From: a virus
IMG/VR virus record: IMGVR_UViG_3300031707_000003
Coordinates: 1-64,000 of that record
DNA length: 64,000 nucleotides
Direction: 5' to 3' (one strand)
The stretch's first letter is position 1. Every line of letters begins with the position of its first letter. A program made the translations under genes and the position numbers. A model generated the notes under the pieces. The model was not told the DNA's origin, did not search any database, and saw only the letters and a program-made list of their open reading frames with translations. Positions 388 through 62,100 of the stretch are shown here, one piece after another.

Positions 388-789
388 ATGGCCGCCAAAA
401 ACCAAGTACTCGCCAACTCGCTGCTCAGCGCTGTTCTCCGCAACATCGCGTACACGTCCCCCTCCGGGGTCTTCGCGGGCCTCTTCACGACGGCTCCGAC
501 GCCGGTGACGACGGGTACCGAGGTCACGACGGGTGGTGGCACGCTCTACAACCGCGTTGCCGTGACGTTCGGCGCCCCGGTTGCGGGTGTCTGCCAGAAC
601 TCGGGTGCGGTGACCTTCCCGATCGCGGGCGCTCCGTGGGGTACGGTCGTGGCTGTGGCGATCTGCGACCTCATCACTCCGGGCGGTGGCAATGAGCTGT
701 ACTTCGGCAACCTCACCGTCTCCAAGGTGGTTGGCACCGGGGATCAGGTCTCGTTCGCGATCGGAGCCCTGAGCGTCACCGAGCAGTGA
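388..789 (+). CDS. Small beta-rich virion/fibre subunit, family A copy 1
   Basis: RBS AAGGAG; motifs LRNIAYTSP..GLFT..P, YNRVAVTF, VTFPIAGAPWGTV, GNELYFG; paralogous to 831 and 2456. Confidence 0.75.
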   Translation: MAAKNQVLANSLLSAVLRNIAYTSPSGVFAGLFTTAPTPVTTGTEVTTGGGTLYNRVAVTFGAPVAGVCQNSGAVTFPIAGAPWGTVVAVAICDLITPGGGNELYFGNLTVSKVVGTGDQVSFAIGALSVTEQ

Positions 790-792
790 AAC

Positions 793-828
793 CCTGGGTT
801 CTACCTCTGTAAACGAAGGAGACCCAGG
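793..828 (+). promoter_or_regulatory. Hairpin occluding the RBS of 831
   Basis: CCTGGGT (793-799) pairs with ACCCAGG (822-828) and extends over AAGGAG; pyrimidine-rich TTCTACCTCTGTA lies in the 5' arm/loop. Confidence 0.45.
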
Positions 829-830
829 AG

Positions 831-1223
831 ATGGCTGCTAAATCTCAGTTCCTCAATCAGTCGGTGCTCAACGCCGTGCTCAGGAACGTGTCGTACACGT
901 CCCCGGCCACGGTGTATTGCGCACTCAACACCACGACTTCGACGCCCACCGTGCCGGGCACCGAAGACGCGGACGCGAACTACGCCCGTATCGCTACGAC
1001 CTTTGCGGCCCCATCGGGCAGTAGCGTCTCCAATTCGGGGGTGCTGAACTTCTACGGGGCAGGTCGTGCGGCGAGTTCGGCAACGATCGTCGAAGCGGCG
1101 ATCTATGACGCGCTCGCTGCGGGCAACGAACTCTACTACGGGTCCCTTGCGGTTGCGAAGCTCGTCGGTACGGGCGACACGGCAAGCTTCTCGGCTTCGT
1201 CTTTGACGGTCACCGAAAGCTGA
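831..1223 (+). CDS. Small beta-rich virion/fibre subunit, family A copy 2
   Basis: MAAKSQFLNQSVLNAVLRNVSYTSP...GNELYYG aligns end to end with 388..789. Confidence 0.75.
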   Translation: MAAKSQFLNQSVLNAVLRNVSYTSPATVYCALNTTTSTPTVPGTEDADANYARIATTFAAPSGSSVSNSGVLNFYGAGRAASSATIVEAAIYDALAAGNELYYGSLAVAKLVGTGDTASFSASSLTVTES

Positions 1224-1234
1224 GGGGGTAAGCC

Positions 1235-1813
1235 GTGCCTAACCAGGATCTCGGGTCACTCACAATGCTCGGCGCGGCCTCGATGCCGGCCCCTACGTTG
1301 GGGCTATTCGAATACCTCGCGTCGAGCATGCTGGCGGATTCATCGACCAGTGCGGGCCTCACGGCGAGCTATGCTGTGTCGGCTGCACCTCAAGGTGACT
1401 CTTCGCTTGCCTCGAATGCGGCGCTCCTCCTGGCGGTCCAGGCGGGGATGGTCGGTGACTCCTCGGGTACGATCGCAGGGGCCGTGAGTTACGCCGAGGC
1501 TGCCTCGCTCTTGGCAGACTCGTCGATGACGGCAGACGCCTTCGAGTTCGACGCCGAGACCTTGGATATCACGGCCGATTCGACCTTCGTGTCGAACCTC
1601 TCGGTCCTCCGTGGGTTCCTCGCACAACTTTCAGGCAATTCGGTGTTCTTCATCGATCCCGCTGGGGTCGTGGTGACCAAGATCACCAAGGGACCGCCGA
1701 TCCCCGCAACAGCCAAGCCTCCGACAGTGCCGCAGCTACGGGTCACGCCTCCGGCACCTGGGGCCCCGTCGTACTCCGTGAGTACGAGCCCGCCGCGACG
1801 CACACCCAGATGA
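1235..1813 (+). CDS. Ala/Ser-rich protein with six 20-aa (A/G)-D-S-S repeats and a Pro-rich tail (putative fibre scaffold)
   Basis: ADSS/GDSS/GDSS/ADSS/ADST/GNS recur at exactly 20-residue spacing; GTG start after GAGGGGG. Confidence 0.65.
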   Translation: MPNQDLGSLTMLGAASMPAPTLGLFEYLASSMLADSSTSAGLTASYAVSAAPQGDSSLASNAALLLAVQAGMVGDSSGTIAGAVSYAEAASLLADSSMTADAFEFDAETLDITADSTFVSNLSVLRGFLAQLSGNSVFFIDPAGVVVTKITKGPPIPATAKPPTVPQLRVTPPAPGAPSYSVSTSPPRRTPR

Positions 1814-1825
1814 AATGAGGATCCA

Positions 1826-1999
1826 ATGGCCGTGATCGAACTCAGCGCAGTGATTCAAGGGACGTCTTCGACAATCGTGGGGAGCCAGTTGGCTATGGCT
1901 CTCGCAGCAACGCTTCGTGGCCGTTCTTCCAGCCTCACTCCAGGGTCGGCGCAGCAGCCCCCTCAGGAGCCGGAGAAGCCCAAGAACGAGCAGGGTTGA
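1826..1999 (+). CDS. 57-aa protein with two 20-aa G-x-S-S repeats (not in ORF track)
   Basis: RBS GAGGA at 1817-1821, ATG 1826, TGA 1997-1999; MAVIELSAVIQGTSS...AATLRGRSS, motifs 20 aa apart; fills the gap between neighbours. Confidence 0.65.
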   Translation: MAVIELSAVIQGTSSTIVGSQLAMALAATLRGRSSSLTPGSAQQPPQEPEKPKNEQG

Positions 2000-2002
2000 T
2001 CC

Positions 2003-2407
2003 ATGGCGACGACACGCGGCCGTATCGTTCAAGCGAACCAGGCGGTCCTGGACCAAGTTGACTTCTTTCAGTCAGACGGGTTCACGCGCGTCACGGGTCT
2101 CACGGCGAGCATCCTGATCTCCCAAATCTTCTTCAACAACCTGCTCCAGCCGTGGCCCCTCATCTCAGGCCTTGGGGTTACCGACGCCCAGGTGGTTTCA
2201 GGGAAAATCTACTTCAACGAGATTCCTGGGAGTCCGGGCTTCTACGCCGTGCGCTTCCGACCGAACGCCGTGGGCTTCTGGCGGAATCTTCTGACCTACA
2301 CGGCGGGTACGCAAATTTCGGCTCAGGACTTCGACGTTGTATCCGGCCAACCCGGTGGTGACGGCGGGTTGAGCGCTTCTTTCATCAAGCCTGGAGAGAA
2401 CTGCTGA
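2003..2407 (+). CDS. Ig-like virion protein
   Basis: EIPGSPGFYAVRFRPNAVGFWRNLLTY..QDFDVV resembles the beta-sandwich pattern seen in 7944 C-terminus and 9397 N-terminus. Confidence 0.6.
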   Translation: MATTRGRIVQANQAVLDQVDFFQSDGFTRVTGLTASILISQIFFNNLLQPWPLISGLGVTDAQVVSGKIYFNEIPGSPGFYAVRFRPNAVGFWRNLLTYTAGTQISAQDFDVVSGQPGGDGGLSASFIKPGENC

Positions 2408-2455
2408 CCTTTCGGCCACGAAATCCTTTTATCAAACATCGCTCTTGAGCTGTCG

Positions 2456-2839
2456 ATGCCCAAAACCTACTACCTCGATGGACAAGTCATCAACGCAGCT
2501 TTGCGGGGGGTGCCCTTTGTGCCCCCCGTGGCGTCGTACATCGCGTTGTTCATTGTGTCCCCAACCAAGTCTGGTGGTGGCATCGAGGTGACGGGTGGGT
2601 CGTACAGCCGGCAGCTCATCACCTGGACGGCACCTGTGAACGGGCAGTCGTCCAACACGGGGGACATCATCTTCCCTGTCGCTACGGTCGCGTGGGGAAC
2701 CATCACGTCCTACGCGTTGCTGGACGCCCCTGTTGCGGGGAACATTCTCTACTTCGCTGACTTGAACGCCCCTCGGCTGGTTCAGATCAACGACCAGGTC
2801 AAGTTTCCCACGGGCCAACTCCAGGTCATCGAGGATTAA
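2456..2839 (+). CDS. Small beta-rich virion/fibre subunit, family A copy 3
   Basis: IEVTGGSYSRQLITW, IIFPVATVAWGTIT, GNILYF align with 388 and 831. Confidence 0.75.
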   Translation: MPKTYYLDGQVINAALRGVPFVPPVASYIALFIVSPTKSGGGIEVTGGSYSRQLITWTAPVNGQSSNTGDIIFPVATVAWGTITSYALLDAPVAGNILYFADLNAPRLVQINDQVKFPTGQLQVIED

Positions 2840-3247
2840 GTGGCGAACGCACTCTACGACTTTGGACGCCAAGGGTACCTGGACGGGTCGCTCAACTGGC
2901 TTACGGATGATGTACGGGCGATCCTCGTCGACACCGGGTTGTACACGCCCAACCTCGCGGCGGACCAGTTCTTGGTCACCATCCCGGTTGGGGCTCGCAT
3001 CTCCGTATCGGGATCGCTCACGACCAAGACGGCCACGGCAGGTGTTGCCGACGCTGATGACGTTTCCTTCACGGCCGTTGCAGGGCCGACAGTCGAAGCC
3101 ATCGTGCTCTACAGGCACACGGGAGTGGACGCCACGGCCCGCCTCATCGCCTACATCGACGCGGCTACGGGTCTTCCGTTTCTCCCTTCTGGCGGCAACG
3201 TCGCCATCCAATGGGACAACGGGTCGAACAAGATTTTCAAGTTGTGA
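2840..3247 (+). CDS. Small virion/fibre subunit, family B
   Basis: MANALYDFGRQGYLDGSLNW..VRAILVD..DADDVSF..RLIAYID..LP..PSGGNVAIQWDNG, a pattern typical of phage minor structural proteins; RBS GAGGA. Confidence 0.7.
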   Translation: MANALYDFGRQGYLDGSLNWLTDDVRAILVDTGLYTPNLAADQFLVTIPVGARISVSGSLTTKTATAGVADADDVSFTAVAGPTVEAIVLYRHTGVDATARLIAYIDAATGLPFLPSGGNVAIQWDNGSNKIFKL

Positions 3248-3250
3248 TCA

Positions 3251-3326
3251 ATCTATAAGCCCACTCGGGTGTGAACCCGGACGGCCATATCTATAAGCCC
3301 ACTCGGGTGTGAACCCGGACGGCCAT
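3251..3326. repeat. Perfect 38-bp tandem duplication ATCTATAAGCCCACTCGGGTGTGAACCCGGACGGCCAT
   Basis: Identical copies at 3251-3288 and 3289-3326; each contains a CGGGT-GTGA-ACCCG hairpin. Confidence 0.95.
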
Positions 3327-3383
3327 CTCACTCAACATACCCGTTCGGACCCGGACTCCGATTGAACTTCGAGAGGAACTCCC

Positions 3384-3956
3384 ATGTCTGGTGACCAAAT
3401 CAACACGAACGGAACTCTCGGCGCCGATGCGAAGATCGAGGCCAACAGTGCAGAGCATCTTGGTCAGCGCATCCGGCACTTCTACGCGGTCGAGTGCTAC
3501 GGCCCGGACGGGTCGCTCAAGTGGCAGGACAACTTCGAGAACCTCGTTACGACGGCGGGTCTCAACAAGTACCTCGATGCGACCCTGAAGACCGGCCTCA
3601 CGACTCCGGCCTGGTTCGTCGGGCTCATCACCGGCCCTGGGGCTGGCAACACCTACGCGGCTGCGGACATCATGTCCTCGCACGCGGGCTGGGCCGAGAA
3701 CGTCACCTACTCGAACGGCACTCGTCCGGCGTGGACCCCTGGCACGATCGCTACGGGATCGGTGGACAACTCAGCCTCGAAGGCGATCTTCAACGTCAAC
3801 GGCACTGCCACCATCGCGGGCTGCTTCATGGTCGACAACTCGACCAAGAGCGGCACCACGGGCACCCTTCTTGGGGAGGGCAACTTCACCGGCGGCGATC
3901 GTCTCGTCCAGTCGGGCGACACCCTCAACGTGACGGTGACGGCAACGCAGAGCTGA
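3384..3956 (+). CDS. Virion/fibre subunit, family C
   Basis: RBS GAGGA; ECYGPDGSLKWQDNFENLVTTAGLN..WFVGLI..VQSGDTLNVTVT; related to 56019. Confidence 0.7.
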   Translation: MSGDQINTNGTLGADAKIEANSAEHLGQRIRHFYAVECYGPDGSLKWQDNFENLVTTAGLNKYLDATLKTGLTTPAWFVGLITGPGAGNTYAAADIMSSHAGWAENVTYSNGTRPAWTPGTIATGSVDNSASKAIFNVNGTATIAGCFMVDNSTKSGTTGTLLGEGNFTGGDRLVQSGDTLNVTVTATQS

Positions 3957-3962
3957 TCGTCG

Positions 3963-4394
3963 ATGTCCTTCTATTCTTTGGCTCAGCGCACTACGGCCAC
4001 GACGGTCAACACACCGTCGTGGGAGATCCGTAGTGCTGCGACCAACAAGCCTCGCGTCATCGAGGTGGGACTCTCGCAAAACACCGCCGTGGCAGGTGTT
4101 TATGGGTTGGGTCGTCCGGGGTCTATTGGGGTCACTCCGACAACACCCCAAACATTCGTCAGAGAGGGTGATGCAGGTGCTCCCACGGGACTGACGACGG
4201 CAGCAGTGGCATGGGGCACCGCTCCGACGTCACCGACGAACTTCGACCGTCGTGCATCGCCCGCTGGCACGATCGGGGCCGGGGTCATCTGGACGTTCCC
4301 CCGTGGATTCGAGATGGCTGTCAGCAGCTCGATTGTCATTTGGCTTCTACAGACCTCCCCCGTCTTGGACGTGTGGGCTGTCCTCGACGAGTGA
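3963..4394 (+). CDS. Virion protein, family D copy 1
   Basis: 143 aa, gapless paralog of 4407..4838. Confidence 0.75.
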   Translation: MSFYSLAQRTTATTVNTPSWEIRSAATNKPRVIEVGLSQNTAVAGVYGLGRPGSIGVTPTTPQTFVREGDAGAPTGLTTAAVAWGTAPTSPTNFDRRASPAGTIGAGVIWTFPRGFEMAVSSSIVIWLLQTSPVLDVWAVLDE

Positions 4395-4406
4395 AGGAAA
4401 GAAGTT

Positions 4407-4838
4407 ATGTCCCTCTACGGCCTCTCTCAACGCACCACTGCCACGGCGGCTGCTTCCGCATCGTGGGAGGTCCGCTCCGCTGCGACCAACAAGCCGAAGA
4501 TCATGGAGGTAGGGATCTCGCAGAGCGCCGCCACGGCGGGCGTCTTCGGATTCGGCCGACCCGCCGCGATCGGCGTCACACCCACGGCCCCTCAGAACTT
4601 CGTGGCTGAGGGTGATGCAGGCGCACCTACGTCGCTCTCCACGGCAGCGGTGGCTTGGGGTACGGGTCCAACGGTCCCCACGAACTTCAACCGCCGCGTG
4701 TCGTGCCCCGCCTCCATCGGAGCTGGGGTCATCTGGACATTCCCTCGTGGGTTCGACCTCGCGGTCACCAACAGCTCCGTCGTCTGGATTCTCGCAACCG
4801 CCCCCGTCTGTGACGTGTGGGCTGTCGTGGATGAGTGA
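4407..4838 (+). CDS. Virion protein, family D copy 2
   Basis: 143 aa, about 69% identical to 3963..4394 by hand count; RBS AAGGA. Confidence 0.75.
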   Translation: MSLYGLSQRTTATAAASASWEVRSAATNKPKIMEVGISQSAATAGVFGFGRPAAIGVTPTAPQNFVAEGDAGAPTSLSTAAVAWGTGPTVPTNFNRRVSCPASIGAGVIWTFPRGFDLAVTNSSVVWILATAPVCDVWAVVDE

Positions 4839-4848
4839 GAGGTAGTGA

Positions 4849-5103
4849 ATGGCGAAGCTCGACGGAGGCGACGGTAGGCAGATCACGGCGTGTATCACCA
4901 TCAAGGTGTGGTCGGACGGTGCTATGTCCGTTGAAGGCCCCATCGAGGACACGGCTTGGTGTATCGCGGCTCTCGACAACGCCAAAGACTCCGTACGCAA
5001 CCACAAGATGCGTCGGGACGCTGCGATCATCGTTCCTTCGTACGACCTCTCGATCCCCGATCCCCTTCACCCGTTGAATGGGACGAACGGATCCAAGTCA
5101 TGA
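4849..5103 (+). CDS. Hypothetical protein
   Basis: RBS GAGG; stop overlaps next start (ATGA). Confidence 0.65.
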   Translation: MAKLDGGDGRQITACITIKVWSDGAMSVEGPIEDTAWCIAALDNAKDSVRNHKMRRDAAIIVPSYDLSIPDPLHPLNGTNGSKS

Positions 5104-5594
5104 GCAGCTTTCAAGGTGGGGCCTCTTGGGGAGGTCTTGGTAACGGAGTTCTCGCTTCAACCGTGGACACCGCCATGCCTCCAGATTATTGCTGGAATTT
5201 CCGGGGGCGCCAAGCCTCCACTCCGTGGCAAGAGGGCCTTCTGTGGTCAGCTCCGCGCTTTAACGGTGGCACCAGTGCCCTGTTTGGCCAAGACGCTTCG
5301 GACGCCGGGGTTTGGAGCAGCGTCGATCGTGATTTCGGTTACGACGAAAGCGGCGGCCAGCAGCGCAAGAAGATCATCGGCACTTGCCGTGATGATACAG
5401 GTGCCGCACTTGGGAGTTGTTTGGTTCAGGGCCTCCGAACAAGCGACGACGCGGACGCGGGCTCGATGACATGTGACTCCGGCGGTTACTTCGAGTTCTG
5501 CACTCAGTACACACAAGCGCACTACCTTGTGGCCTACAAGGCGGGTTCCCCTGATGTTGCAGGGACAACGGTGAACACTCTCGTTGGGGTGTGA
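5100..5594 (+). CDS. Virion protein with C-terminal transthyretin/carboxypeptidase-regulatory-like beta domain
   Basis: IIGTCRDDTGAALGSCLVQGLRT...TCDSGGYFEF pattern; start moved to ATG 5100 (ATGA overlap). Confidence 0.55.
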   Translation: MSSFQGGASWGGLGNGVLASTVDTAMPPDYCWNFRGRQASTPWQEGLLWSAPRFNGGTSALFGQDASDAGVWSSVDRDFGYDESGGQQRKKIIGTCRDDTGAALGSCLVQGLRTSDDADAGSMTCDSGGYFEFCTQYTQAHYLVAYKAGSPDVAGTTVNTLVGV

Positions 5595-5597
5595 GCT

Positions 5598-7931
5598 ATG
5601 GTAGCGGCCGATGTCACCCTGAGACAAACAGGGCTAGACGGGCCGAATGATGTTCGGCTCTATCCTCTTGCTCAAGATGATGCGGGTGTCCTGAGTATCG
5701 TTCTGTTCTCGACGGCCACGCCGTTCGGACCGAACGATGTGTTGCTCTCGATTGTAACCCCATCAAAAATCAACCTCATCCCCACGCAGACCTTGGTGGG
5801 GACGTCGGCCTTGGTTCTTACCAATACGGCCGATGCGGTCGCCGATCAGCTCTTCGCGCAGACGGCTGCCGTTGCCCTAACGAACGCTCTCGACATCCCC
5901 GCGTCCCAGACGTTGGCGGTAACGGCTGCGGTTATCCTAGACGGGCAACGGGGTCTCTTTTACGACTTGACCTTTGGGGGTACGGCGGGCTGGACTACCT
6001 CGAACACGCTCGATGCGCTGGGGAGCCTCTCGCTACCCACGACGGCCGCCCTTGTCCAGACGAACCTTCTCGACGCTGCGGCATCCCAGGCCCTTGGGGT
6101 TACTGCGGACTGGACTACTTCGGACACGCTCGACGCTCAGGCCACCCAAACGTTGGCGGGGACGAGCGCTTTCGTTCCGACGAATGTTCTCGACGCTCAG
6201 GCGTCTCAAACTCTCGCTCAGACGGCTGCGGTCATCCTAGACGGGCAACGCGGCCTCTTCTACAGCGTGTCCTTTGGGAGCACTGCGGGCTGGACTACTT
6301 CGGACACGCTCGATGCGGCGGCGAACACAGCGTTCGCTTCACATCCTGATGCCATTGAAGGGGACACTTCAACCTTCAACCTCCTGAATTCTTTCAACGC
6401 GACGGCTGTTTGGTTCGCTACAAATACGGTCGACGCGCAAGGGGCTTTCACGCTCCCTTCAACGGGCGCCTTCGTTCCCTCGGACACCCTCACCGCGCAA
6501 GGGGCTTTCACGCTCCCCTCGACGGCTGCCTTCGTCACTTCGGACACGCTCGATGTTCAGGCCACCCAGACGTTGGCAGGGACGGCTGCCTTCGTCACTT
6601 CGGACACGCTCGACGCTCAGGCGTCTCAGACGTTGGCGGCAACGGCTGCGGTCATCCTAGACGGACAACGCGGCCTCTTCTACAGCGTCTCCTTTGGGGG
6701 TACTGCGGGTTGGACGGGGTCCGGTCAACTCGATGCGTTAGGCAGTCTCTCGCTACCCACGACGAGCGCTTTCGTCACCTCGGACACCCTCACCGCCCAA
6801 GCGTCTCAGACGTTGGGGGTGGTTGCTGGGTTCGTGTCTACCACACAATTGGACGCAGCAGCATCCACGCTGTTGAGCGCTCTGTCGACCGTAACTTCTA
6901 CGGGGGGTCTCGTTTTCCAGGCAGCTTTCGTCTTCACTTCGGCGGCGGGCTTTGTTGCAGCTCGGTCGCTGAGCTTCGATAGCGCGTTGACCTTTGGTTC
7001 AACAGGGGTGTTGTCTCCGGCCTCCCAACTTGATGCTGCGGCGGCCACGGCATTTGCTTCGCACCCTGATGCCATTGAAGGGCAGACCTCAACCTTCAAT
7101 CTCCTGAACTCGTTCGCGACGACGGCGGTTTGGTTCACAGACATCACGGTCGGCGTGTTCGCGTCGATCACGTTGAACCAGACGGGCGCCTTCGTTCCGA
7201 CGGGCCAGCTCGACGCGCTCGGGAGCACCTTGTTGACCTCGGCGGGCGCTCTTGGGCTAACAAATAAGCTCGACGCGCTCGGTAACATCACGCTGAGCCA
7301 AACGAGTGCATGGGCGGGGGATACCGTAACCCCCCACCAGGTTTCGATGGCTCTAGGAGCCATCGGAGGGTTCACTGCGGCGGCAACTATAGGGGCTCAG
7401 GGCCAAACGACCCTGCTAGCGAGCGCGGGGTACGCAACGGCCGTTCAAGCTGACGTGCCTGTGTTCCTAGGGCTGCACCAGACAAGTACCTGGAGTGCGG
7501 GGCGGACGTTGGATATTTCCCCCGTCACGTCTTTCTCGGCCTCACCGGCGGTCTATTTTGACCTCGATACGCTCATCATCCCGGTCTCGATCATTTCGGG
7601 AGAGGTGTTCGGATCAGCTACTTTCTCGATGCTAATGTTTCCGTTGGGGGTGGTTTCCGCTCAAGCGTTCGGACAACCCACCCAAGAGTTCAACCTCACA
7701 GCCGCTTTGGTTGCACCCACGGGGATCCCGTCTAGCGAGTCGTTTGGCACCCCGACCCAGAGCTTCACCCTTAGCGATTTCGTGCACACCGTGACTTTCG
7801 TTGGAATTCCAACGAAAGAGACCTTCGGAGCCCCCGTGGTTGTTTATACGCCTGTGACTATGAAACCTATGGGGATCCCGTCTGGTGAATCGTTTGGTAC
7901 GCCATCTCAAGCACGCATTCTGACTGCCTAG
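5598..7931 (+). CDS. Long Thr/Ala-rich repeat protein (putative fibre scaffold): 20-aa TLDA repeats then GIPSxExFG repeats
   Basis: 777 aa; TSDTLDAQASQTLAxTAA units in strict 20-aa register; five (G/S)(I/V)xSxExFG units at the C-terminus. Confidence 0.8.
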   Translation: MVAADVTLRQTGLDGPNDVRLYPLAQDDAGVLSIVLFSTATPFGPNDVLLSIVTPSKINLIPTQTLVGTSALVLTNTADAVADQLFAQTAAVALTNALDIPASQTLAVTAAVILDGQRGLFYDLTFGGTAGWTTSNTLDALGSLSLPTTAALVQTNLLDAAASQALGVTADWTTSDTLDAQATQTLAGTSAFVPTNVLDAQASQTLAQTAAVILDGQRGLFYSVSFGSTAGWTTSDTLDAAANTAFASHPDAIEGDTSTFNLLNSFNATAVWFATNTVDAQGAFTLPSTGAFVPSDTLTAQGAFTLPSTAAFVTSDTLDVQATQTLAGTAAFVTSDTLDAQASQTLAATAAVILDGQRGLFYSVSFGGTAGWTGSGQLDALGSLSLPTTSAFVTSDTLTAQASQTLGVVAGFVSTTQLDAAASTLLSALSTVTSTGGLVFQAAFVFTSAAGFVAARSLSFDSALTFGSTGVLSPASQLDAAAATAFASHPDAIEGQTSTFNLLNSFATTAVWFTDITVGVFASITLNQTGAFVPTGQLDALGSTLLTSAGALGLTNKLDALGNITLSQTSAWAGDTVTPHQVSMALGAIGGFTAAATIGAQGQTTLLASAGYATAVQADVPVFLGLHQTSTWSAGRTLDISPVTSFSASPAVYFDLDTLIIPVSIISGEVFGSATFSMLMFPLGVVSAQAFGQPTQEFNLTAALVAPTGIPSSESFGTPTQSFTLSDFVHTVTFVGIPTKETFGAPVVVYTPVTMKPMGIPSGESFGTPSQARILTA
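5790..7320 (+). repeat. Intragenic 60-bp-register mosaic repeat array
   Basis: ATCCTAGACGG(G/A)CAACG blocks near 5935, 6235 and 6655 (offsets 300 and 420); CA(T/C)CCTGATGCCATTGAAGG near 6342 and 7062 (offset 720); all multiples of 60. Confidence 0.85.
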
Positions 7932-7943
7932 AAGGATTACTCC

Positions 7944-8819
7944 GTGTCCACCTGGATCCCCTCAGCCGAGGCCTTTGGTAACCCTTCCCAGGTTTTGATC
8001 CTGGGGGCTACCGGCGTTTCTTCTGCGGAAGCGTTTGGGTCGGCAACGATCACACATTCGAGCGTCACGCTCATTCAGCCGACAGGGGTGCCCAGCGGAG
8101 AGGCCTTCGGCACTCTCCACACGGCGTTTCTGCTCAAGCCTACGGGTGTCCTGACCCGAGAAGCCTTCGGCACGCCGGTCCTGAATACGACCGTCAACGT
8201 CATCCTTGCGTCAGGAACGACCTACGGGCACGGGCAGATCACCCTAGGCGAAGTTCTCTTGGCAGGCACGGTTACCAGCACCGGTAACCTCAATTCACCG
8301 TCGCCCACGATCATTCTCAACTTTGACCCCGTTATCTTCGGGCGCGGGCAGCTCATCTGGAACGGTCCAGATCAAGCCCGAGGGTTCGGCACCCTCGCCG
8401 CGTTCATGGAGATCATCCATATCCCGGCCCCCGCGTGCGCGACCTGCACGTGCCCGAAAACAGCCTTCCATTGGATGCAGGACTTCCAGAAGGGTGACCT
8501 AGGTATCTGCCTCACGGACAACTTCGGCAACCCGATCGGTCCGGTTATGGTCCAGTACACACTCTTCTGGGTCCAGAAGGGCTGTGTGCCGCATCAAGTG
8601 GGGTGTTGCGGTCGAAAACCCGTCTCAGCCGGGCTCGGTAAGTACTACATCACCGGAACTGCCGGGGAGGGTGGGCAGCCAGGCCTTTGGATTGCCCGCT
8701 GGCAGTTTCAAAAAAGCTTTGGTGCTCCGATCCAGGAGAGGGACGTGTGCTTCTTCGTCCAGGACGCGATTGCGGCTGGAGACAAGACCTTTAGGGTCTG
8801 CAAGTATGGGTGGGATTGA
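7944..8819 (+). CDS. GIPSxEAFG-repeat protein with Cys-rich C-terminal Ig-like domain paralogous to 9397 N-terminus
   Basis: Four PSAEAFG-type repeats; C-terminal GDLGICLTD..P..VQYTLF..VG..RKP..GKYY..GLWIARWQF..FFVQD; GTG start after AAGGA. Confidence 0.75.
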   Translation: MSTWIPSAEAFGNPSQVLILGATGVSSAEAFGSATITHSSVTLIQPTGVPSGEAFGTLHTAFLLKPTGVLTREAFGTPVLNTTVNVILASGTTYGHGQITLGEVLLAGTVTSTGNLNSPSPTIILNFDPVIFGRGQLIWNGPDQARGFGTLAAFMEIIHIPAPACATCTCPKTAFHWMQDFQKGDLGICLTDNFGNPIGPVMVQYTLFWVQKGCVPHQVGCCGRKPVSAGLGKYYITGTAGEGGQPGLWIARWQFQKSFGAPIQERDVCFFVQDAIAAGDKTFRVCKYGWD

Positions 8820-8821
8820 CC

Positions 8822-9400
8822 ATGGACTTGGCTCTCAAGGTGGCTCGGAGGTTTATCGCGGGGTGCTCATGCGAGCACACGGCTGTTGCCCCTGAGGGTT
8901 GGGAGGGTCCCATCAAGAAGATGAAGAAGGACGACGAGATCGACAACCCGTTCGCCCTCGCGTGGTGGATGAAGGGGGAGGGGTACAAACCTCACGCAAA
9001 GGAAGCTATGGATCCACTCGCCGAACGTGTCGCCCGTCGCTTCCTCGCTGAGACGCTGAAGGACCCCAAGTCCGTGGGGGACTTTCTCGCGGAGAACGTC
9101 CTGAAGTCGGGGCAGAAGGTTCGTGTCTGGACGGGGCGCGGCAAGGACGACTACCACGAGGGCACGGTCTCCAGCATCAAGCTGTGGCCCAAGCCTGGGG
9201 ACAAGGCGTTCATCCGCGACAACCTCACGGGCAAGGTGAACCGCAAGGACGAGTACACGATCAAGTTCGATCGTGAGCCCGCGTACACGGGGGAGCCCCG
9301 TGAAGGCACCCTCATGGTCGAAGGGATGCGCGGCGGGGAAGGCATGCACGTCTCGTTCGGCAAGGCCAAGGGACGTGTCTACAAGTTGGCCCTCCTATGA
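8822..9400 (+). CDS. Basic protein with two (K/R)VARRF(I/L)A motifs (possible internal virion protein)
   Basis: MDLALKVARRFIA and MDPLAERVARRFLA; start set to ATG 8822 just after the upstream stop. Confidence 0.65.
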   Translation: MDLALKVARRFIAGCSCEHTAVAPEGWEGPIKKMKKDDEIDNPFALAWWMKGEGYKPHAKEAMDPLAERVARRFLAETLKDPKSVGDFLAENVLKSGQKVRVWTGRGKDDYHEGTVSSIKLWPKPGDKAFIRDNLTGKVNRKDEYTIKFDREPAYTGEPREGTLMVEGMRGGEGMHVSFGKAKGRVYKLALL

Positions 9401-10317
9401 GCGTTTCTTTCTTCCGTGGGCAGCAACTCGGGAGGAACGACCTCAACATCTTCCTCGTCAACGTCAATAGCACCCCATCCAACGCGTCGGAGATCAGCTA
9501 CGGGCTCTTCGATTTCACGACGGGAGCAGAGGTCCTTGTTGGTCCTCCAAACAGGGTCCCTTCGAATCCAAGCGTAGGGGAGTACTTCGCGAGCGTCATC
9601 GTCCCGCTCGATGCCAATTTGGGTACCTACCGGGTTCGATGGACCTTCCGCGAAGTCGTCGGCGGCAACATTCAGCAGGTCGTTCAGGAGTTCGCTGTCA
9701 TCGACAAGGTGAACCTGGCTACAGCCAGTGCCAGCTCCATCACGGGCGGGGCGTTGAACGCGACCCACATGGAGTTGGACCTCATGGCCCGACTCCGGAT
9801 CCTACTTCGGGACAACAACCCGGACAGGAACTACCACTTCCGCCCGCCCACACACGAGGAGACCATCCAGCAATTTAGCCGGGTATTCGGCTACATCTGG
9901 GAGGACATCGAGCTACAGGAGTACCTCGAACGCTCCCTCGACATGATCATCGCGTCGCCTCCGCGAACGCCGTTCGGAAGCATCGACCAGATGGTGCAGT
10001 CGATGCCAGAGTGGCGCACGATGCTCCTCACCGGGGCGATGTCCCATGCCCTCCGAGCGCTCCAAATCAACTGGATTGCTGACGAGTTCGATTACTCGAT
10101 CGGCGGGGTGTCACTCAGCATCGACAAGGCCAGCAAGTACGAGTCCGTGGCCAGCGCCCAGTCCGACCAGTTCGACAAGCAACTGGAGAAGGCCAAGCAG
10201 ACGATCAACTTCGTGAAGGGCCTTCAGCAGCCCCGATTTGGGACTGGTATCCGTTCTGCCTTCGGTCCTTACGCGGGCCGAGGTGTGTTGAGTCCGCGTA
10301 AGTTCGTTGGCTTCTAA
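9397..10317 (+). CDS. Putative neck/head-tail adaptor protein with N-terminal Ig-like domain
   Basis: Helical C-terminal half RLRILLRD..WEDIELQEYLERSL..FDYSIGGVSLSIDK resembles head-tail adaptor (SPP1 gp15-type) architecture; position upstream of tail genes. Confidence 0.55.
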   Translation: MSVSFFRGQQLGRNDLNIFLVNVNSTPSNASEISYGLFDFTTGAEVLVGPPNRVPSNPSVGEYFASVIVPLDANLGTYRVRWTFREVVGGNIQQVVQEFAVIDKVNLATASASSITGGALNATHMELDLMARLRILLRDNNPDRNYHFRPPTHEETIQQFSRVFGYIWEDIELQEYLERSLDMIIASPPRTPFGSIDQMVQSMPEWRTMLLTGAMSHALRALQINWIADEFDYSIGGVSLSIDKASKYESVASAQSDQFDKQLEKAKQTINFVKGLQQPRFGTGIRSAFGPYAGRGVLSPRKFVGF

Positions 10318-14753: not shown

Positions 14754-15506
14754 ATGCCCAACGAGCGCAAATCGGAGGAGCTACAGCCCCTTCCAGTGAA
14801 GGACCCGTACTCGGGGCTCCACTCCGAATCAGTCTACGCCATGTGGCATGATCCCATGACGTACGACCACATGAAGATGGGTCCCCCGTACTTGCCCGAA
14901 CTTAAGGTTCGTATGGCGAGCACGGACCGGGATTCCGTTCGTGCGCTCGTCAAGCGAGAGGCGCAAACCTCGCCCGTTGATCAGATTCTCTCTCATCTGA
15001 TCGGGGAGTACCAAGGGCTCCCGATGGCCGAGCTGGGGGCCCTCCTCGCGTGCCTTCGGGCAGCGGCGATGGTCCACCAGACGCACCACTGGCAAACACG
15101 TGGGCTCACGTTTTACGGCGACCACCTCCTCTACATGCGGCTCTACGAGGAGTCGTCTTCGTTCGTCGATCAAGTCGCGGAGCGTGCCGTGGGCGCAGGC
15201 AGCCACCTTCTCGTTCACCCCGTCATCCAGACGGCGCAGATCCAGGCTCTCGTGAAGCACTTCTGCGGGGACATCCTCACGGATCCCAGCCCCGACGCTT
15301 ACGCCCTCGTGAGTCTCACGTGCGAGGCACGCCTCCTCACGGCACTCAACGGCGTGTACGGGATGTTGGAACAGAAGGGTCAGCTCTCGAACGGCACGGA
15401 CAACCTCCTTCAAGGGGTGGCCGACAAGCACGAGGAGTTCGTCTACCTGCTCAAGCAGCGCTGTCTCACGAAGGTCAGCTACGATCGCCGTTCATCGGCC
15501 AAATGA
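14754..15506 (+). CDS. Dps/ferritin-like protein with N-terminal extension
   Basis: HHWQTRGLTFYGDHLLYMRLYEE...DQVAER matches the Dps ferroxidase pattern HW-x3-G-x2-F-x3-H...D-x2-AER. Confidence 0.8.
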   Translation: MPNERKSEELQPLPVKDPYSGLHSESVYAMWHDPMTYDHMKMGPPYLPELKVRMASTDRDSVRALVKREAQTSPVDQILSHLIGEYQGLPMAELGALLACLRAAAMVHQTHHWQTRGLTFYGDHLLYMRLYEESSSFVDQVAERAVGAGSHLLVHPVIQTAQIQALVKHFCGDILTDPSPDAYALVSLTCEARLLTALNGVYGMLEQKGQLSNGTDNLLQGVADKHEEFVYLLKQRCLTKVSYDRRSSAK

Positions 15507-15525
15507 AACCCAAATCAGATGTGGA

Positions 15526-15542
15526 GGGTCCCGTTGGGACCC
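15526..15542 (+). promoter_or_regulatory. Perfect 7-bp hairpin upstream of the actin-like gene RBS
   Basis: GGGTCCC-GTT-GGGACCC. Confidence 0.5.
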
Positions 15543-15562
15543 AAGATGAAGAGAGGATGAAA

Positions 15563-16585
15563 ATGGCCAAGTCAGATCGTGCTGCGTACAAGTCGGGGGT
15601 GGGTCTCGACATCGGGACTATGAATATTGTTTCGGCTCGCCAGATCGGCGACAAGATCGAAACGAACCGCATCCGGGATGCGTTTCTCGACCTCGACTCA
15701 GATGCCAAGAAGACGCTCCGTCTCTCGAAGGTGGACTACATCGAGAAGGACGGGAACCTGATTGTCATCGGGGACTCGGCCCTCAACATGGCGAACCTCT
15801 TCAAGCGAGAGGTGCGTCGGCCACTCTCACGAGGCGTGATCTCGGCGGGTGAAATCGACGCCCAGCAGATCCTCAGCTTGCTCGTCAAGCACGTTCTAGG
15901 GGACCCTGGCACCCCAGGTGAGCACTGCTTCTACAGCGTGCCGGCAGCTCCCATCGACGACGAGAACCAGGACATCATCTACCACACCGAGGTCTTCCGC
16001 AAGATCCTCACCGAACACAACTACGCGGCCCACCCTCAAAACGAGGCGATGGCGATCATCTACAGCCAGTGCGCTAAGGAGAACTTCTCCGGGCTCGCCG
16101 TGAGCTTTGGCTCCGGTATGTGCAACATCGCTCTCGCCTATCAGACGGTGAAGGGGATGGACTTCTCGGTGGCTCGTGGTGGTGATTGGATTGACTCCCA
16201 TGCGGCGAAGGCCACGGGGTCCACGGCATCTCGCATGTGCTCCCTCAAGGAGAAGGGTGTCGACCTCGCGAACACGGCGGGAGATCGCGATGCAGAAGCC
16301 ATCGCGCTCTACATCCGGGCTCTCATCAAGTACTGTCTGGAGAACATCGCCATTCAGTTCCGCAAGGTGCAGAGCACGCTCAACCTACCGGAGCCCATCC
16401 CCTTCGTTGTCTCCGGCGGCACGAGTCGCGCAGGCGGCTTCATGGCGGTCTTCGAGGAAGAGTTCGAGGCCGTGAAGAAGAAGGGGTTCCCGATTCAGAT
16501 CAGTGAAGTCCGAGCGGCCAAGGATCCCATGACCGCCGTAGCGGAGGGTCTCCTCGTGCTTGCAATGGAGGAGCACGCGGACTGA
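15563..16585 (+). CDS. Actin-family (MreB/MamK/ParM-like, ASKHA fold) ATPase
   Basis: Phosphate-1 GLDIGTMNI, connect-1 NEAMA, phosphate-2 VSFGSGMCNI, GGDWID, adenosine VSGGTS, connect-2 DPMTAVAEG; RBS GAGAGG; alternative starts 15557/15503; the 15050 start in the track overlaps the Dps gene. Confidence 0.85.
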   Translation: MAKSDRAAYKSGVGLDIGTMNIVSARQIGDKIETNRIRDAFLDLDSDAKKTLRLSKVDYIEKDGNLIVIGDSALNMANLFKREVRRPLSRGVISAGEIDAQQILSLLVKHVLGDPGTPGEHCFYSVPAAPIDDENQDIIYHTEVFRKILTEHNYAAHPQNEAMAIIYSQCAKENFSGLAVSFGSGMCNIALAYQTVKGMDFSVARGGDWIDSHAAKATGSTASRMCSLKEKGVDLANTAGDRDAEAIALYIRALIKYCLENIAIQFRKVQSTLNLPEPIPFVVSGGTSRAGGFMAVFEEEFEAVKKKGFPIQISEVRAAKDPMTAVAEGLLVLAMEEHAD

Positions 16586-55983: not shown

Positions 55984-56012
55984 ATCCTTTCATGCGTCCT
56001 CGGAAGAGGAGG
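55983..56012 (+). promoter_or_regulatory. AATCCTTTCAT motif plus GNRA hairpin over the RBS of 56019
   Basis: TCCTC-GGAA-GAGGA (55997-56010) covers GAGGAGG. Confidence 0.45.
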
Positions 56013-56018
56013 GTCTGC

Positions 56019-56537
56019 ATGCACATCCTGGAGACGGTTCCCAACGTCCGCGCTAAGGTTCGGATCCGCCAAGAGCGCCCTTACGAGTACGACGAGGCTC
56101 GGGGCCTCTGGTTGTACCGCCACGTGGACGAGGATGAGGAGGTTTTCAACATCCTCACGAACACGGGCCGGGTCCAACTCCACAACTTCGCCTACGGCAC
56201 CGTCGCTCGTGCGAACGGTTTCAACTACATCGGTCTGTCGAACGACGCGACGCCACCTGCTGCTGCGGACGCCTCTCTTCTGGCGGAGCTGACCAGCAAC
56301 GGGCTCGGTCGGGCTCAGGGTACAGTGACACTACCCACGGGCGCGGGAAATCAGACGAGCATCCTGCACTTGTTCACGTACACGGGCGGAGCACCCCAGG
56401 GCGTTCAGAAGTGCGCCCTTTTCGACTCGGCAGGTCCGCCGATCAGCGGCGTCATCAATCACGAGGTCCAGTTCGTCCAGAGAACCCTCCTCCTGAACGA
56501 CACGCTCACGGTTTCGTACACGATTACGCTGGGCTAG
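56019..56537 (+). CDS. Virion/fibre subunit related to family C
   Basis: FNILTNTGR..YIGLS..LLAEL..GLGRAQG..ALFD..NDTLTVSYTI; RBS GAGGAGG supports 56019 over 55992. Confidence 0.7.
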   Translation: MHILETVPNVRAKVRIRQERPYEYDEARGLWLYRHVDEDEEVFNILTNTGRVQLHNFAYGTVARANGFNYIGLSNDATPPAAADASLLAELTSNGLGRAQGTVTLPTGAGNQTSILHLFTYTGGAPQGVQKCALFDSAGPPISGVINHEVQFVQRTLLLNDTLTVSYTITLG

Positions 56538-59178: not shown

Positions 59179-62100
59179 ATGGCGGTCATTATTCGAGGCG
59201 GTACTTACGGCACTGGAACGTACGGAACAACTCCGTTCGGTTCTCGCGCGTTTGACAGCCCCGGCCCTACCCTCGTTTCGAGCATCCCGGTCAACGGGGC
59301 TGGTGCCGTTGTGGTCGGGGCCCCGATCACGATCAACATCACTTCACCTGTCGAACTGGATCCCTGGTCCCTTTCCGTCACGGTACAGGGTCAGCAGGCT
59401 GTCGTAGGCGGTGACTTCGTTCCAGGGGGGGCCTTCGACGGCACGATCATCTTCGACGGCCCCGACCTACAAATTCTGATTGCCACGCATCCTGCCTTCC
59501 TGACAGGGGCGGTCGCCGTGGACACGCAGGTCACGGACCTCGCTGGAATTACGAACACGCTGTCGTTCGTGTTCATGACCTCGTTCTTCGAGACCGTGGC
59601 CGTCTCCGAAATCGTGGCCGTCACACACGCAACGGCAGTTGCACTCAACGAGTCTGTCCCGGTTTTGGAGGGACTAGCCGTTAGCCTCGGGACAGCCGTT
59701 AGCCTTGCTGAGACCGTGCCGCTCACCGAGGTCGTCTCGGCAGGCACACTGATCATCGTTTCGTCCGAAGACACTCTCTCCGTTACCCTTCCCCTCGAAG
59801 TCTTGGTGGACGGGGTTGTCGACTTCTCTAATTACACGATCGCCCCCCTTCTCGCTTCGGATGACCCACCTGGCAATAGCGCTTTCCCTGTTTCTATCCG
59901 GGAGATCACCCCCCTTCAGGCATTCGAACAGTCGGGGAGTGCTGCGACTGTCAATTCGTCGTTCGTTCTCACAATCGCCGATGGCACCTTCCTCCCTGGC
60001 AACGTCGGCGACTACCTCTTCTTGAGCAGCCCGCTCAACACGACGCCTTTCTTGCAGATCACTGCCATCTTGGGTCCCACTCAAGTCCAGGTCAACAAGC
60101 CGCTCATCATTACGGATCCCCAAAATGGCAGCATCCCCTGGACCTTGAAGTCCAGCGTGCAGGGGATGCTCGTCAAGATCACCAAGCCAACGAACGGCGG
60201 TATCTATCGGTTCGCGGTTCGCAATCTCCGCTTGGCGCACCAATCGAACGCGATCTTCAACATCCGGGACTTCTTCGTCGCAGTTTCGTCGAAGCCTCAA
60301 GTTGAAGGTGTTGTGGTCCAAGATGACGGCCAGATCACCGTCCACTTCTCGGATTTGATGCTCTCCGACGGTGCGCTGACGGACCCACGCGAGTACTCGA
60401 TCACGGGTCCCACCACGGTGCAGATCGTATCGGCAGCATCATCCGGGGTCAGTCCCGACGGAACCACCGAAATCCTTCTGACGACAACCGGCCTTGGGCC
60501 AGGGTCCTACCAGCTCACCGTGAATGCTACGGGTACCCCGCACGACGCTGCGGGCAACCCGATCGACCCCACGTTCAATCAGACCGTGTTCCTGGGCGCC
60601 TCCCCCATCTCTTCGCGCAGCATCTACACGGATAAGGGGCCCATCGTCAAACCCCCTCTCATCTTGCTGTCCGGGGCGACCGCGACCATCAACGACGCCA
60701 TCACCGTCACGTTGCCAACCGCATCCCTTACCGGGACCATGGTGGGGCTTCAGCTCGTGCTCACGGGCTCTTCGACGAACGGTGGGACCTTCCTCATCAA
60801 AGCCGTTCTTTCCCCGACCAAGGCTAGGGTCATCGCCAGCTTCCACCTGCCGGATCCCTCCAACGGGACCATCAGTTGGAAGGTTGTGGCCCCACGCGAC
60901 GGGGAGATTGCGGACGACCCTACCGATGTCGTTGTGCGTATCAACGGTGTTCCAGTGGCCGCCCAGGCCGTCGCAGGCCTCCTCGGTCAGATCGTCATGT
61001 CGACGCCGCCGGTCCACGGGTCCGAGGTCAGAGTCGATTACAACTGGGTCTGCAATCCGGTCGTTGACTTCCGGCGGATGAACTCGAAGGAGTTTCGGTT
61101 CAACAACTGGAACCGGGACAACGGGAGACCGAACGACACAAGCCGACACAAGTATCGGTTCAACAACACGCTCGTCAAACCGAGTTCGTTCGTCCCGCTC
61201 GACATGCGGGCTCTCCTTGACCAGCCTCTCCTCCGCGACCTGAAGTACAGGGCCTATGAGCGGGCGTACACGCCGACCCTCAACGACCCCAATCTTCTGC
61301 TCTTCAACTCCCCCACCAACCACATCGCCTTCCCTCCTCTATCTCGTCCGACCGACGCCGTTTTCATCAACTACCAGGCGACGGTCCTACCTGAACTCGA
61401 ACCCACGAACCCTTGGGTTCGCTATGGAACAGGTTCGGCAACGATCAACATCGACGAACTGATCGTCCAAGACACGTCCACGGGGCCATTCCCTACTGGC
61501 AACCCGATCTTCTGGACACGGCCGATCGACCTCACCTTCCCGCATGTCTTCGCTGCCGCATGGCGTATGACGCTCAACGCGGCTCCGCTCACCGAAGGGG
61601 TCTTTACGGGAGTCGCTGCGGGCTACTCGACCGATCAGAAGGCTATCGTTGTAGGTTACATTGTCGATGCTGGGGTCAAGAAGATCGGCTTCCTAAAGGC
61701 CGGCTCCGGTAATGATCCGAGCACCTTGGCGGCCTGGGGTGGTGGTCTGGATGGCTTGGGGAATCCGACGGGACTCCCTGCGGCCCTCGATTGGTCGACG
61801 CTCCATAGCTACCGCATTTCCCGAGATAGGGATGGCAACGTTAGGGTCTTCCTCGACGGGAGTGTTGTCGAGATTCTTCGCATGACCGAAGCGGAGCTTC
61901 CCTTCCTAGCGGAGCTGAATGATCCGTTCAATGCGTTGGAGGGAGTCTTCTTCGGATCTCTCTCTCGTCCTGCGACGAGTACGTCGACGTGGAACTTCAT
62001 GCGGTACGCGATCCTACCGCTGAACCCCTTCCAGTCTTCGCCATCTGTCTTCGTGTCGTACGAGGGGACCACTCCCCCTGAAGTCGCTTCGGACCCGTGG

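Follow-up and report, generated by a model that had tools for sequence, protein, structure and literature searches.

What do the small, beta-rich proteins and the repeat proteins that alternate near the start of an uncultured phage contig build? The question is raised by positions 388-8819 of the IMG/VR virus record IMGVR_UViG_3300031707_000003, of which we analyzed positions 1 to 64,000 (64 kb, hereafter the window). The window is the first part of a phage contig of 111,677 bp, has a GC content of ~0.60 and carries nearly all of its genes on the + strand. Many of its very large open reading frames (ORFs) have almost no PHROGs or Pfam match, and the source is a divergent tailed-phage genome. 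The genes considered here lie within the first 8.8 kb. A sequence-only reading of this DNA had described small proteins of at least four families (A to D) interleaved with repeat proteins, as is indeed the case, and had proposed that each repeat donates a strand to one small subunit. Homologies to solved virion proteins, repeat statistics and gene linkage suggest that the region probably encodes chain-like "beads on a rope" virion appendages, in which family A would supply the beads and protein 1235 the rope of one appendage, and an inserted module would supply a second, composite rope, protein 5598. The candidate beads and ropes are as follows, proteins without a family letter being named by their first position:

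388-789, + strand: A1, Gp80-type fibre or whisker subunit of 133 residues (Pfam PF23140, E-value 8e-34)
831-1223, + strand: A2, Gp80-type subunit (PF23140, E-value 1e-26), 49% identical to A1
1235-1813, + strand: 1235, candidate DSS rope with six gapless 20-residue (A/G)DSS units and a C-terminal anchor, from period statistics
2456-2839, + strand: A3, Gp80-type subunit (PF23140, E-value 5e-36)
2840-3247, + strand: B, homologue of the Bxb1 tail wing arm gp31 (phrog_644, E-value 8e-41; PDB 9d93_Ra)
3384-3956, + strand: C, homologue of the A1002 chain-like-fibre subunit gp41, fibre II (phrog_8123; PDB 26la_U/44nx)
3963-4394, + strand: D1, complete jelly-roll protein of 143 residues by AlphaFold2 (AF2) model, with a predicted local distance difference test score (pLDDT) of 91
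4407-4838, + strand: D2, paralogue of D1 (69% identity by BLASTP)
5598-7931, + strand: 5598, composite rope candidate of 777 residues, from period statistics and repeat alignment
7944-8819, + strand: 7944, GIPSxExFG units with a Cys-rich C-terminal domain, from phrog_13352 and a p9397 hidden Markov model (HMM)

By sequence, A1-A3 are members of the Gp80 fibre I or whisker subunit family. PF23140 is the family "Podophage GP4 fiber I protein gp80", against whose gathering cut-off of 27 bits the three proteins score 94-124 bits, and A1 aligns over its full length with gp80 of phage GP4 (PDB 8JOU, chain 8jou_a, E-value 2e-6). Identities of 34-49% among the three (within-window BLASTP, E-values of 1e-16 to 1e-23), and of 69% between D1 and D2, bear out the earlier grouping of A (388, 831, 2456) and D (3963, 4407) as families. 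Related phages carry only two A genes; A2 is the extra paralogue. In fibre I of GP4, gp80 dimers sit on a rope (PDB 8JOU; Zheng et al., J Mol Biol 2023, via PMC13730344 and PMC12609058) that is an independent protein carrying five dimers (PMC12609058, PMC13730344). Gp80-type dimers have incomplete sandwiches, which are completed by the rope that they wrap "such as beads on a string" (PMC12609058). GP4, a Ralstonia podophage, thus resembles the window in having subunits homologous to A1-A3 and a separate rope gene beside the subunit gene, as is 1235, but it has one gp80 where the window has three A paralogues, and the rope sequences are unrelated. The 325-residue gene directly after gp80 in GP4 (L008, 2206-3183) has a 20-residue period over residues ~40-240 and may encode the GP4 rope, with no entry in the PDB sequence set to match it; a PDB sequence search with this gene returned nothing relevant.

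The candidate rope 1235 lies directly 3' of A2, and the same order is seen in three related loci (L001, L004/5, L006); the DSS rope adjoins A in 4 lineages, and this co-occurrence supports the A-DSS pairing that had been proposed. Units span residues 34-153, after which comes a conserved Pro-rich C-terminal anchor, and identity at an offset of 20 residues is 0.198, compared with 0.086 +/- 0.020 in shuffles. The exact 20-residue period reported for both 1235 and 5598 is therefore confirmed, with 6 and 30 gapless units, far above shuffles. Orthologues of 1235 in related IMG/VR phages have 4, 8 or 10 gapless units before the conserved anchor, and the gaps in their alignment are exactly 20, 40 or 60 columns long. 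A word-index protein search with 1235 found only 2 relatives; a profile scan (HMMER, 1.84 billion representatives) found 127, counted as representative clusters at 50% identity, which include free ropes of 111-270 residues and DSS arrays inside proteins of 359-2393 residues. Unit number in the family ranges from 2 to 10. Among 22 free ropes starting with Met, the anchor begins at residues 55-56, 74-75, 96-98, 116-117 or 133-138, and in 17 of the 22 its start is 16 +/- 2 modulo 20 (binomial p 4e-7, with the residue window picked post hoc). Rope length changes in whole 20-residue units across the family, as would be anticipated if each unit is one docking site.

Family C leads to a second solved fibre. 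A C-family profile built from 12 proteins matches the 171-residue chain of PDB 26LA/44NX (E-value 1e-14, 148 profile positions aligned), which is the fibre II protein gp41 of Pseudomonas phage A1002 (PMC13730344). Profile-profile alignment also links A with C (hhalign E-value 7e-5, 63% probability), which fits the published common fold of gp41 and gp80 (PMC13730344); hhalign comparisons of A with B, A with D and C with D gave no signal. C is present in a single copy in the window (BLASTP), and scanning every C-family protein against Pfam yielded no family. In A1002, eleven dimers of gp40 and gp41 form augmented beta-sheets with nozzle-rope gp39's fibre-dock domain, comprising residues 243-468 plus 3-32 and 96-107 (PMC13730344). 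Our own arithmetic on these residue ranges gives a pitch of ~20-24 residues per dimer, which the 20-residue unit of the window matches. It follows that one dimer per unit is more likely than the one small subunit per repeat of the sequence-only reading, which does not agree with a rope that docks dimers. The A1002 podophage and the window also share a homologous bead (gp41 and C), and the window may likewise have two bead types on one rope and subunit genes near the gene of that rope. The A1002 rope, however, is a domain of the nozzle protein with 11 sites, whereas 5598 is a free 777-residue protein with 30 units and a second repeat type; the two ropes have no sequence similarity, and D is not detectably related to gp40. 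We also considered p54 of phage F116 as an A1002-type rope and rejected it, as it has no period.

Relatives of C are regularly found with repeat proteins. In 10 of the 14 C lineages a protein of 180-432 residues with a strict 20-residue period follows C, directly or after a 58-residue ORF, so that it lies 1-3 genes downstream; most of the exceptions are cut contigs. Within the window the sole candidate rope for C is 5598, which is five genes away and has units that differ from the C-linked ones. At the end of several C-linked repeat proteins is a conserved WELIDD motif, after which come W-rich repeats.

The third family with a solved homologue is B. A B-family profile of 14 proteins matches "Tail wing arm, gp31" of phage Bxb1 (PDB 9D93, chain 9d93_Ra) with an E-value of 5e-22, and homologues are found in 446 phage records, of which Mycobacterium phages account for 398. 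B is single-copy in the window (BLASTP), no Pfam family was found in a scan of all B family members, and a protein atlas places B nearest a Gp80-named cluster (0.86, 173 shared features), which we treat as a lead only. The Bxb1 tail wing consists of gp30 (base), gp31 (arm) and gp33 (brush) (PDB 9D93; Freeman et al., Cell 2025, via PMC12646305), in which gp31 is bound not to the tail core but to another tail protein (PMC12646305). The Pfam domain expected for the Bxb1 wing is absent from 5598, 7944 and the other neighbours, so B belongs to the gp31 family but the window has no Bxb1-type wing. Moreover, gp31 lacks the first ~30 residues of B, and gp30, like PhrostyMug gp32, has no GIPS array.

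The distribution of GIPS-type repeats follows B. ORFs with at least three GIPS-type units occur in 6 of 13 B lineages and in 0 of ~55 others (p 2e-5), and two further B lineages have a degenerate 24-residue GIPS variant. Homologues of 7944 have GIPS units only in genomes with B, while their B-less relatives bear other N-terminal repeats. The B homologue of cultured mycobacteriophages, for instance prophiFSIL01-1 and LittleLaf, has within ~2 kb upstream a minor tail protein that matches the GIPS region. In phiT46-1 (L093, 2941-5115) the minor tail protein gp23, with about nine N-terminal units of 20-22 residues of the VPSRVAVGTP type and then a globular C-terminal domain, directly adjoins gp24, a full-length B homologue. 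The suggested pairing of B with GIPSxExFG is thus also supported by gene co-occurrence.

Protein 5598 begins with 60 N-terminal residues, continues with 30 TLDA-type units of 20 residues (residues 61-660) that run without a single indel, and closes with three GIPSxExFG units. Offset-20 identity is 0.229, against 0.093 +/- 0.008 in shuffles, and super-periods of 100 and 240 residues are present. The unit consensus is QASQT[LF]xxTAA[FWV]VxTNTLDA, and every one of the 30 units has L or F at position 6. In the DNA of 5598-7931, internal repeats are spaced only by multiples of 60 nucleotides and are 61-87% identical, which indicates an old array kept in register. An orthologue of 665 residues in L009/L010 is 36% identical and keeps the period. 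No PDB, Pfam or PHROG match to 5598 was found. AF2 modelling of 5598 alone gave a mean pLDDT of 38.8, which is unreliable given a two-row alignment; this low-confidence model has about three short strands per unit.

The GIPSxExFG repeat continues from 5598 into 7944, with three units at the end of the former and three to four at the start of the latter (BLASTP between the two, E-value 5e-10), and its spacing of ~20-27 residues is loose, as had been described. Residues 3-87 of 7944 match the minor tail family phrog_13352 (E-value 1e-12). The Cys-rich C-terminal domain is paralogous to the N-terminus of the neighbouring protein p9397 (BLASTP E-value 7e-5, HMM E-value 3e-32), suggesting a shared docking domain, and 7944 is likely to be an attachment module. 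Unit HMMs for the DSS, TLDA and C-linked SETV repeats do not cross-match, indicating that these unit types are unrelated in sequence, and the periods in the rope proteins stand 5 to 17 standard deviations over shuffles.

We collected 80 further loci around relatives of B, C and D, used jackhmmer to class the ORFs in them, and gave each ORF of at least 100 residues a score for local periods of 18-24 residues. This yielded 41 unique periodic ORFs, 34 of which are no more than four genes away from a gene of family A, B, C or D (odds ratio 9.3, p 6e-10). The expected genomic linkage between subunit families and repeats is thus seen.

The ~5-kb block at 2840-7931 holds B, C, D1, D2, p4849, p5103 and 5598. 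It has no counterpart in the six related IMG/VR phages (loci L001-L007) and forms an accessory module that was inserted between A3 and 7944. The gene order in related IMG/VR phages is A, rope, p2003, A, a p7944-like gene and p9397. Two contigs (L009/L010) do have the block, with protein identities of 36-87%. The remaining genes of the locus, and a distant repeat array, are:

1826-1999, + strand: ORF of 57 residues with a canonical rope N-terminus and two GxSS units, no anchor (rope HMM, E-value 0.014)
2003-2407, + strand: p2003, conserved 134-residue partner of the A and rope module, between the rope and the A3-like gene in all relatives
4849-5103, + strand: p4849, 84-residue protein conserved after D (20 loci, always adjoining D or p5103)
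5103-5594, + strand: p5103, 163-residue protein between D and the repeat protein (21 loci)
9397-10317, + strand: p9397, conserved 306-residue neighbour sharing a domain with 7944 (69-78% identical in relatives)
59587-59779, + strand: ETV-type 20-residue units, ~3-4, inside a 1772-residue protein starting at 59179 (local period of 20 only)

From the homologies, periods, 20-residue quantisation and gene linkage given above we infer the binding steps, the stoichiometry and the place of the appendages on the virion. A1-A3 would form dimers, and an extended rope would donate strands completing their incomplete beta-sandwiches, as in the solved homologues; these dimers would load on the six units of 1235, and the C-terminal anchor would fix the rope to the particle. 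The inserted module would build a much longer appendage on 5598, with dimers of C, and possibly of A, loading on the TLDA units at about one dimer per unit, and with B loading on the GIPS units that run from the last part of 5598 into the first part of 7944. The assembly would be docked, probably on the neck or head, through the C-terminal domain of 7944. D would serve as a trimeric knob or a piece resembling cement, and p5103 possibly as an adaptor.

Several observations weigh against this beads-on-a-rope scheme. In PDB searches with 1235, 5598 and a C-linked rope, no solved rope was matched by sequence; the solved ropes are themselves mutually dissimilar, and at least one is possibly missing from the PDB sequence set. 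Roughly half of the lineages with B or D have no periodic neighbour, in some cases because contigs are cut. The two contigs L009/L010, the closest relatives with the full module, keep two A genes but have no DSS rope, so the A-DSS pairing is not obligatory, and A may be able to use other ropes as well. An HMM of the SETV-type units from C-linked ropes matches neither 5598 nor 59179. The pairing proposed for C with TLDA or ETV repeats thus finds support as a link to 20-residue repeats in other phages, but not for the units of this genome. The hydrophobic positions 6, 12 and 18 of the TLDA units would also suit a beta-solenoid with three sides. Finally, D is a complete jelly roll in its AF2 model, so that at least one "subunit" family does not fit a model of grooved beads. 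Strand donation, proposed for the small subunits, finds support for A and C through the solved homologues gp80 and A1002 gp41 (PMC13730344), but not for D.

The AF2 model of D is a complete jelly roll of eight to nine strands (pLDDT 91). Its best fold match is the trimeric cement protein of KHP40 (7dou_4, Z 7.7), and the cement protein of GP4 (8h89_J) is matched with Z 6.6; the model ties cement trimers together with C1q/TNF proteins, Ena spore-appendage subunits and plant-virus coat proteins at Z 6.6-7.7, scores in the range of a common arrangement. On the strength of this model, D is probably a trimeric knob or cement-like protein rather than a grooved bead. We considered the possibility that D1 and D2 cement or decorate the capsid, perhaps together with p4849 and p5103, and that these proteins only share a head-accessory block with the fibre genes and have no physical tie to the repeats. 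This we regard as possible but rather unlikely. The fold matches are what would be expected, and in A1002 the cement protein, gp49, is also a trimeric jelly roll of 143 residues (PMC13730344), but all of the Z scores are below 8, and D has no sequence match in the PDB, to any solved cement protein or otherwise. The gene order also argues against it. D has more than 500 metagenomic homologues, all unnamed, and D is typically followed, in this order, by p4849, which is optional, by p5103 and by a periodic protein whose period is 18, 20 or 22 residues and whose repeat sequences are very diverse; the arrangement recurs in many unrelated uncultured phages, and in about half of the 21 loci p5103 is directly upstream of the periodic protein. 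A complex prediction with two copies of D and residues 281-340 of 5598 gave ipSAE values of 0.01-0.02, which, lacking controls, count neither way.

Proteins adjoining D or C in unrelated uncultured phages (L054:8930-10339, L087:8663-10786, L036:2846-4120 and others) are built of near-perfect units that are 20 or 22 residues long, number from 12 to more than 20 and have entirely different sequences; one of these proteins has 22-residue QSLxNISITQVHxLSIQDxxQG-like units.

A second alternative, which we consider unlikely, is that the long 20-residue repeat proteins (5598 and its analogues beside C and D) fold by themselves as beta-solenoid or trimeric beta-helical shafts, with the neighbouring proteins as tips, chaperones or decorations. 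Exact periods are also typical of solenoids, and the L or F at unit position 6 in all 30 units, the hydrophobic residues at 12 and 18 and the three or so strands per unit in the low-confidence model are all as a shaft would have them; so is the C1q/TNF-like jelly roll of the repeat-linked D, a fold frequent as a fibre-tip knob. AF2 found no confident fold for 5598 (pLDDT 39), although two sequences make this little informative. A self-folding shaft sits less well with the 10 of 14 C lineages in which C adjoins such repeats, as the homologous solved bead docks at a similar pitch, and with the relatives of the DSS rope, which are short (2-10 units), free-standing and beside Gp80 genes, like the GP4 rope.

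The beads-on-a-rope scheme could also be carried further than we have done above. Protein 5598 might be a programmable heteropolymer template, in which unit subtypes arranged in the 100- and 240-residue super-repeats, together with the GIPS tail, set the loading order of C, the A paralogues, B and a terminal knob of D. Repeat number would then determine length and repeat type composition, and a non-cross-reacting 20-residue code would be a general, as yet unannotated means of appendage building in many uncultured phages and mycobacteriophages. This is speculation, and we consider it unlikely. A GC-rich region with many overlapping ORFs might suggest that the repeats arose through composition or by chance in Ala/Ser/Thr-rich ORFs, and that the small proteins are unrelated. 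This is virtually certain to be wrong, being already refuted by periods 5 to 17 standard deviations above shuffles, by orthologues that diverge in sequence yet keep the period, and by the matches of three of the four small families to solved virion proteins.

The basic mechanism of beads on a rope is not new. The sequence-only reading had held it to be undescribed for phage fibres, but it has been reported for GP4 (2023), Bas63 (2025) and A1002 (2026); the window is an unusually large, mixed kit of this kind. In the collar whisker of Bas63, an Escherichia myophage, Gp80-like dimers are threaded on a rope that completes their sandwiches (PMC12609058). The Bas63 rope is part of a larger protein (PMC12609058), like the GIPS units on 7944 or the DSS units on a 577-residue protein at 64501 (described below), but it carries two dimers of one subunit type, compared with up to 30 units and several subunit families here. 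Chaperone-usher and type V pili likewise complete an incomplete immunoglobulin-like fold with a donated strand, which comes from the next subunit, whereas in the scheme proposed here a separate scaffold would donate all of the strands. The neck fibre of cyanophage A-1(L) has the look of a bead chain, but its trimers join head to tail without a rope (PMC10966104).

We found no description in the accessible literature of three features: the combination of three bead families of solved type plus D with at least three non-cross-reacting unit types and a composite rope of 30 units, against a published maximum of 11 sites; a strict 20-residue length quantum as a family-wide signature; and the pairing of B with GIPS repeats, extending to minor tail proteins of mycobacteriophages. 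Chain-like fibres have been seen only recently and in few cultured phages, and the window suggests that they could be recognized from sequence only, by a small bead gene beside a protein whose length varies by exact multiples of 20 residues. Such a design seems both widespread and modular, with DSS ropes and C- and D-linked ropes in uncultured phages and B with GIPS-type repeats in mycobacteriophages. If this is true, many "hypothetical" and "minor tail" genes are open to re-annotation, and bead-rope pairs in cultured phages, such as gp23/gp24 of phiT46-1 and those of the Marvin-group phages, could be tested. Fibre length may be tuned in evolution simply through the number of repeats.

Some of the other repeat-bearing genes are more difficult to interpret. 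The 57-residue ORF at 1826 does have a rope-like N-terminus, similar to the canonical N-terminus of rope homologues, but the 20-residue GxSS repeat attributed to it amounts to only two units, too short for period statistics; the ORF is either a mini-rope or a remnant. The canonical N-terminus (MA-I/V-V/I-E...) is found on 1826, and the N-terminus of 1235 differs from it over ~33 residues, suggesting a past rearrangement or split of the rope gene. The ETVxVxE repeat of 59179, described earlier as having an exact 20-residue period, is present as only ~3-4 units (residues ~137-200), and its period is local and weak. The second C-like gene reported upstream of it (55992-56537) is not upheld, since BLASTP (E-value 0.35), the C-family HMM (E-value 1.6) and hhalign (E-value 0.02 at 2% probability) give no convincing match, though the alignment is collinear. 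Just past the end of the window, directly after the 1772-residue protein that starts at 59179, a 577-residue protein (G000:C1:64501-66234, + strand) has DSS-type 20-residue units, ~4 N-terminal and ~3-4 C-terminal (rope HMM, E-value 7e-8), and Gp80-type beads may thus decorate this protein as well.

Among the accessory genes, p2003 is 55-75% identical in relatives and has no Pfam or PHROG family. A weak protein-atlas lead makes it possible that p5103 is an Ig (immunoglobulin)/CarboxypepD_reg-like adaptor. In the intergenic gap between B and C, positions 3251-3326 are a perfect tandem duplication of a 38-nucleotide unit, and both copies include an inverted repeat that is short and GC-rich. At the left edge of the inserted module, this may be a terminator or regulatory hairpin in duplicate.

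Immediately upstream of A1 is a gene for recombination endonuclease VII (39-329, + strand; Pfam E-value 4e-13), in whose position relatives have a protein of 370-376 residues and one of 81-84 residues. No homologues of these two proteins were found anywhere in this genome, suggesting that the contig may begin inside or beside the head gene block. Capsid and portal genes were not located by PHROG and Pfam annotation, as the large downstream genes and the upstream genes of relatives have almost no matches. Among the putative neck and tail genes is a 511-residue protein (15050-16585, + strand), residues 184-505 of which match Pfam PF25216, Volactin, an actin-fold family (E-value 2e-75).

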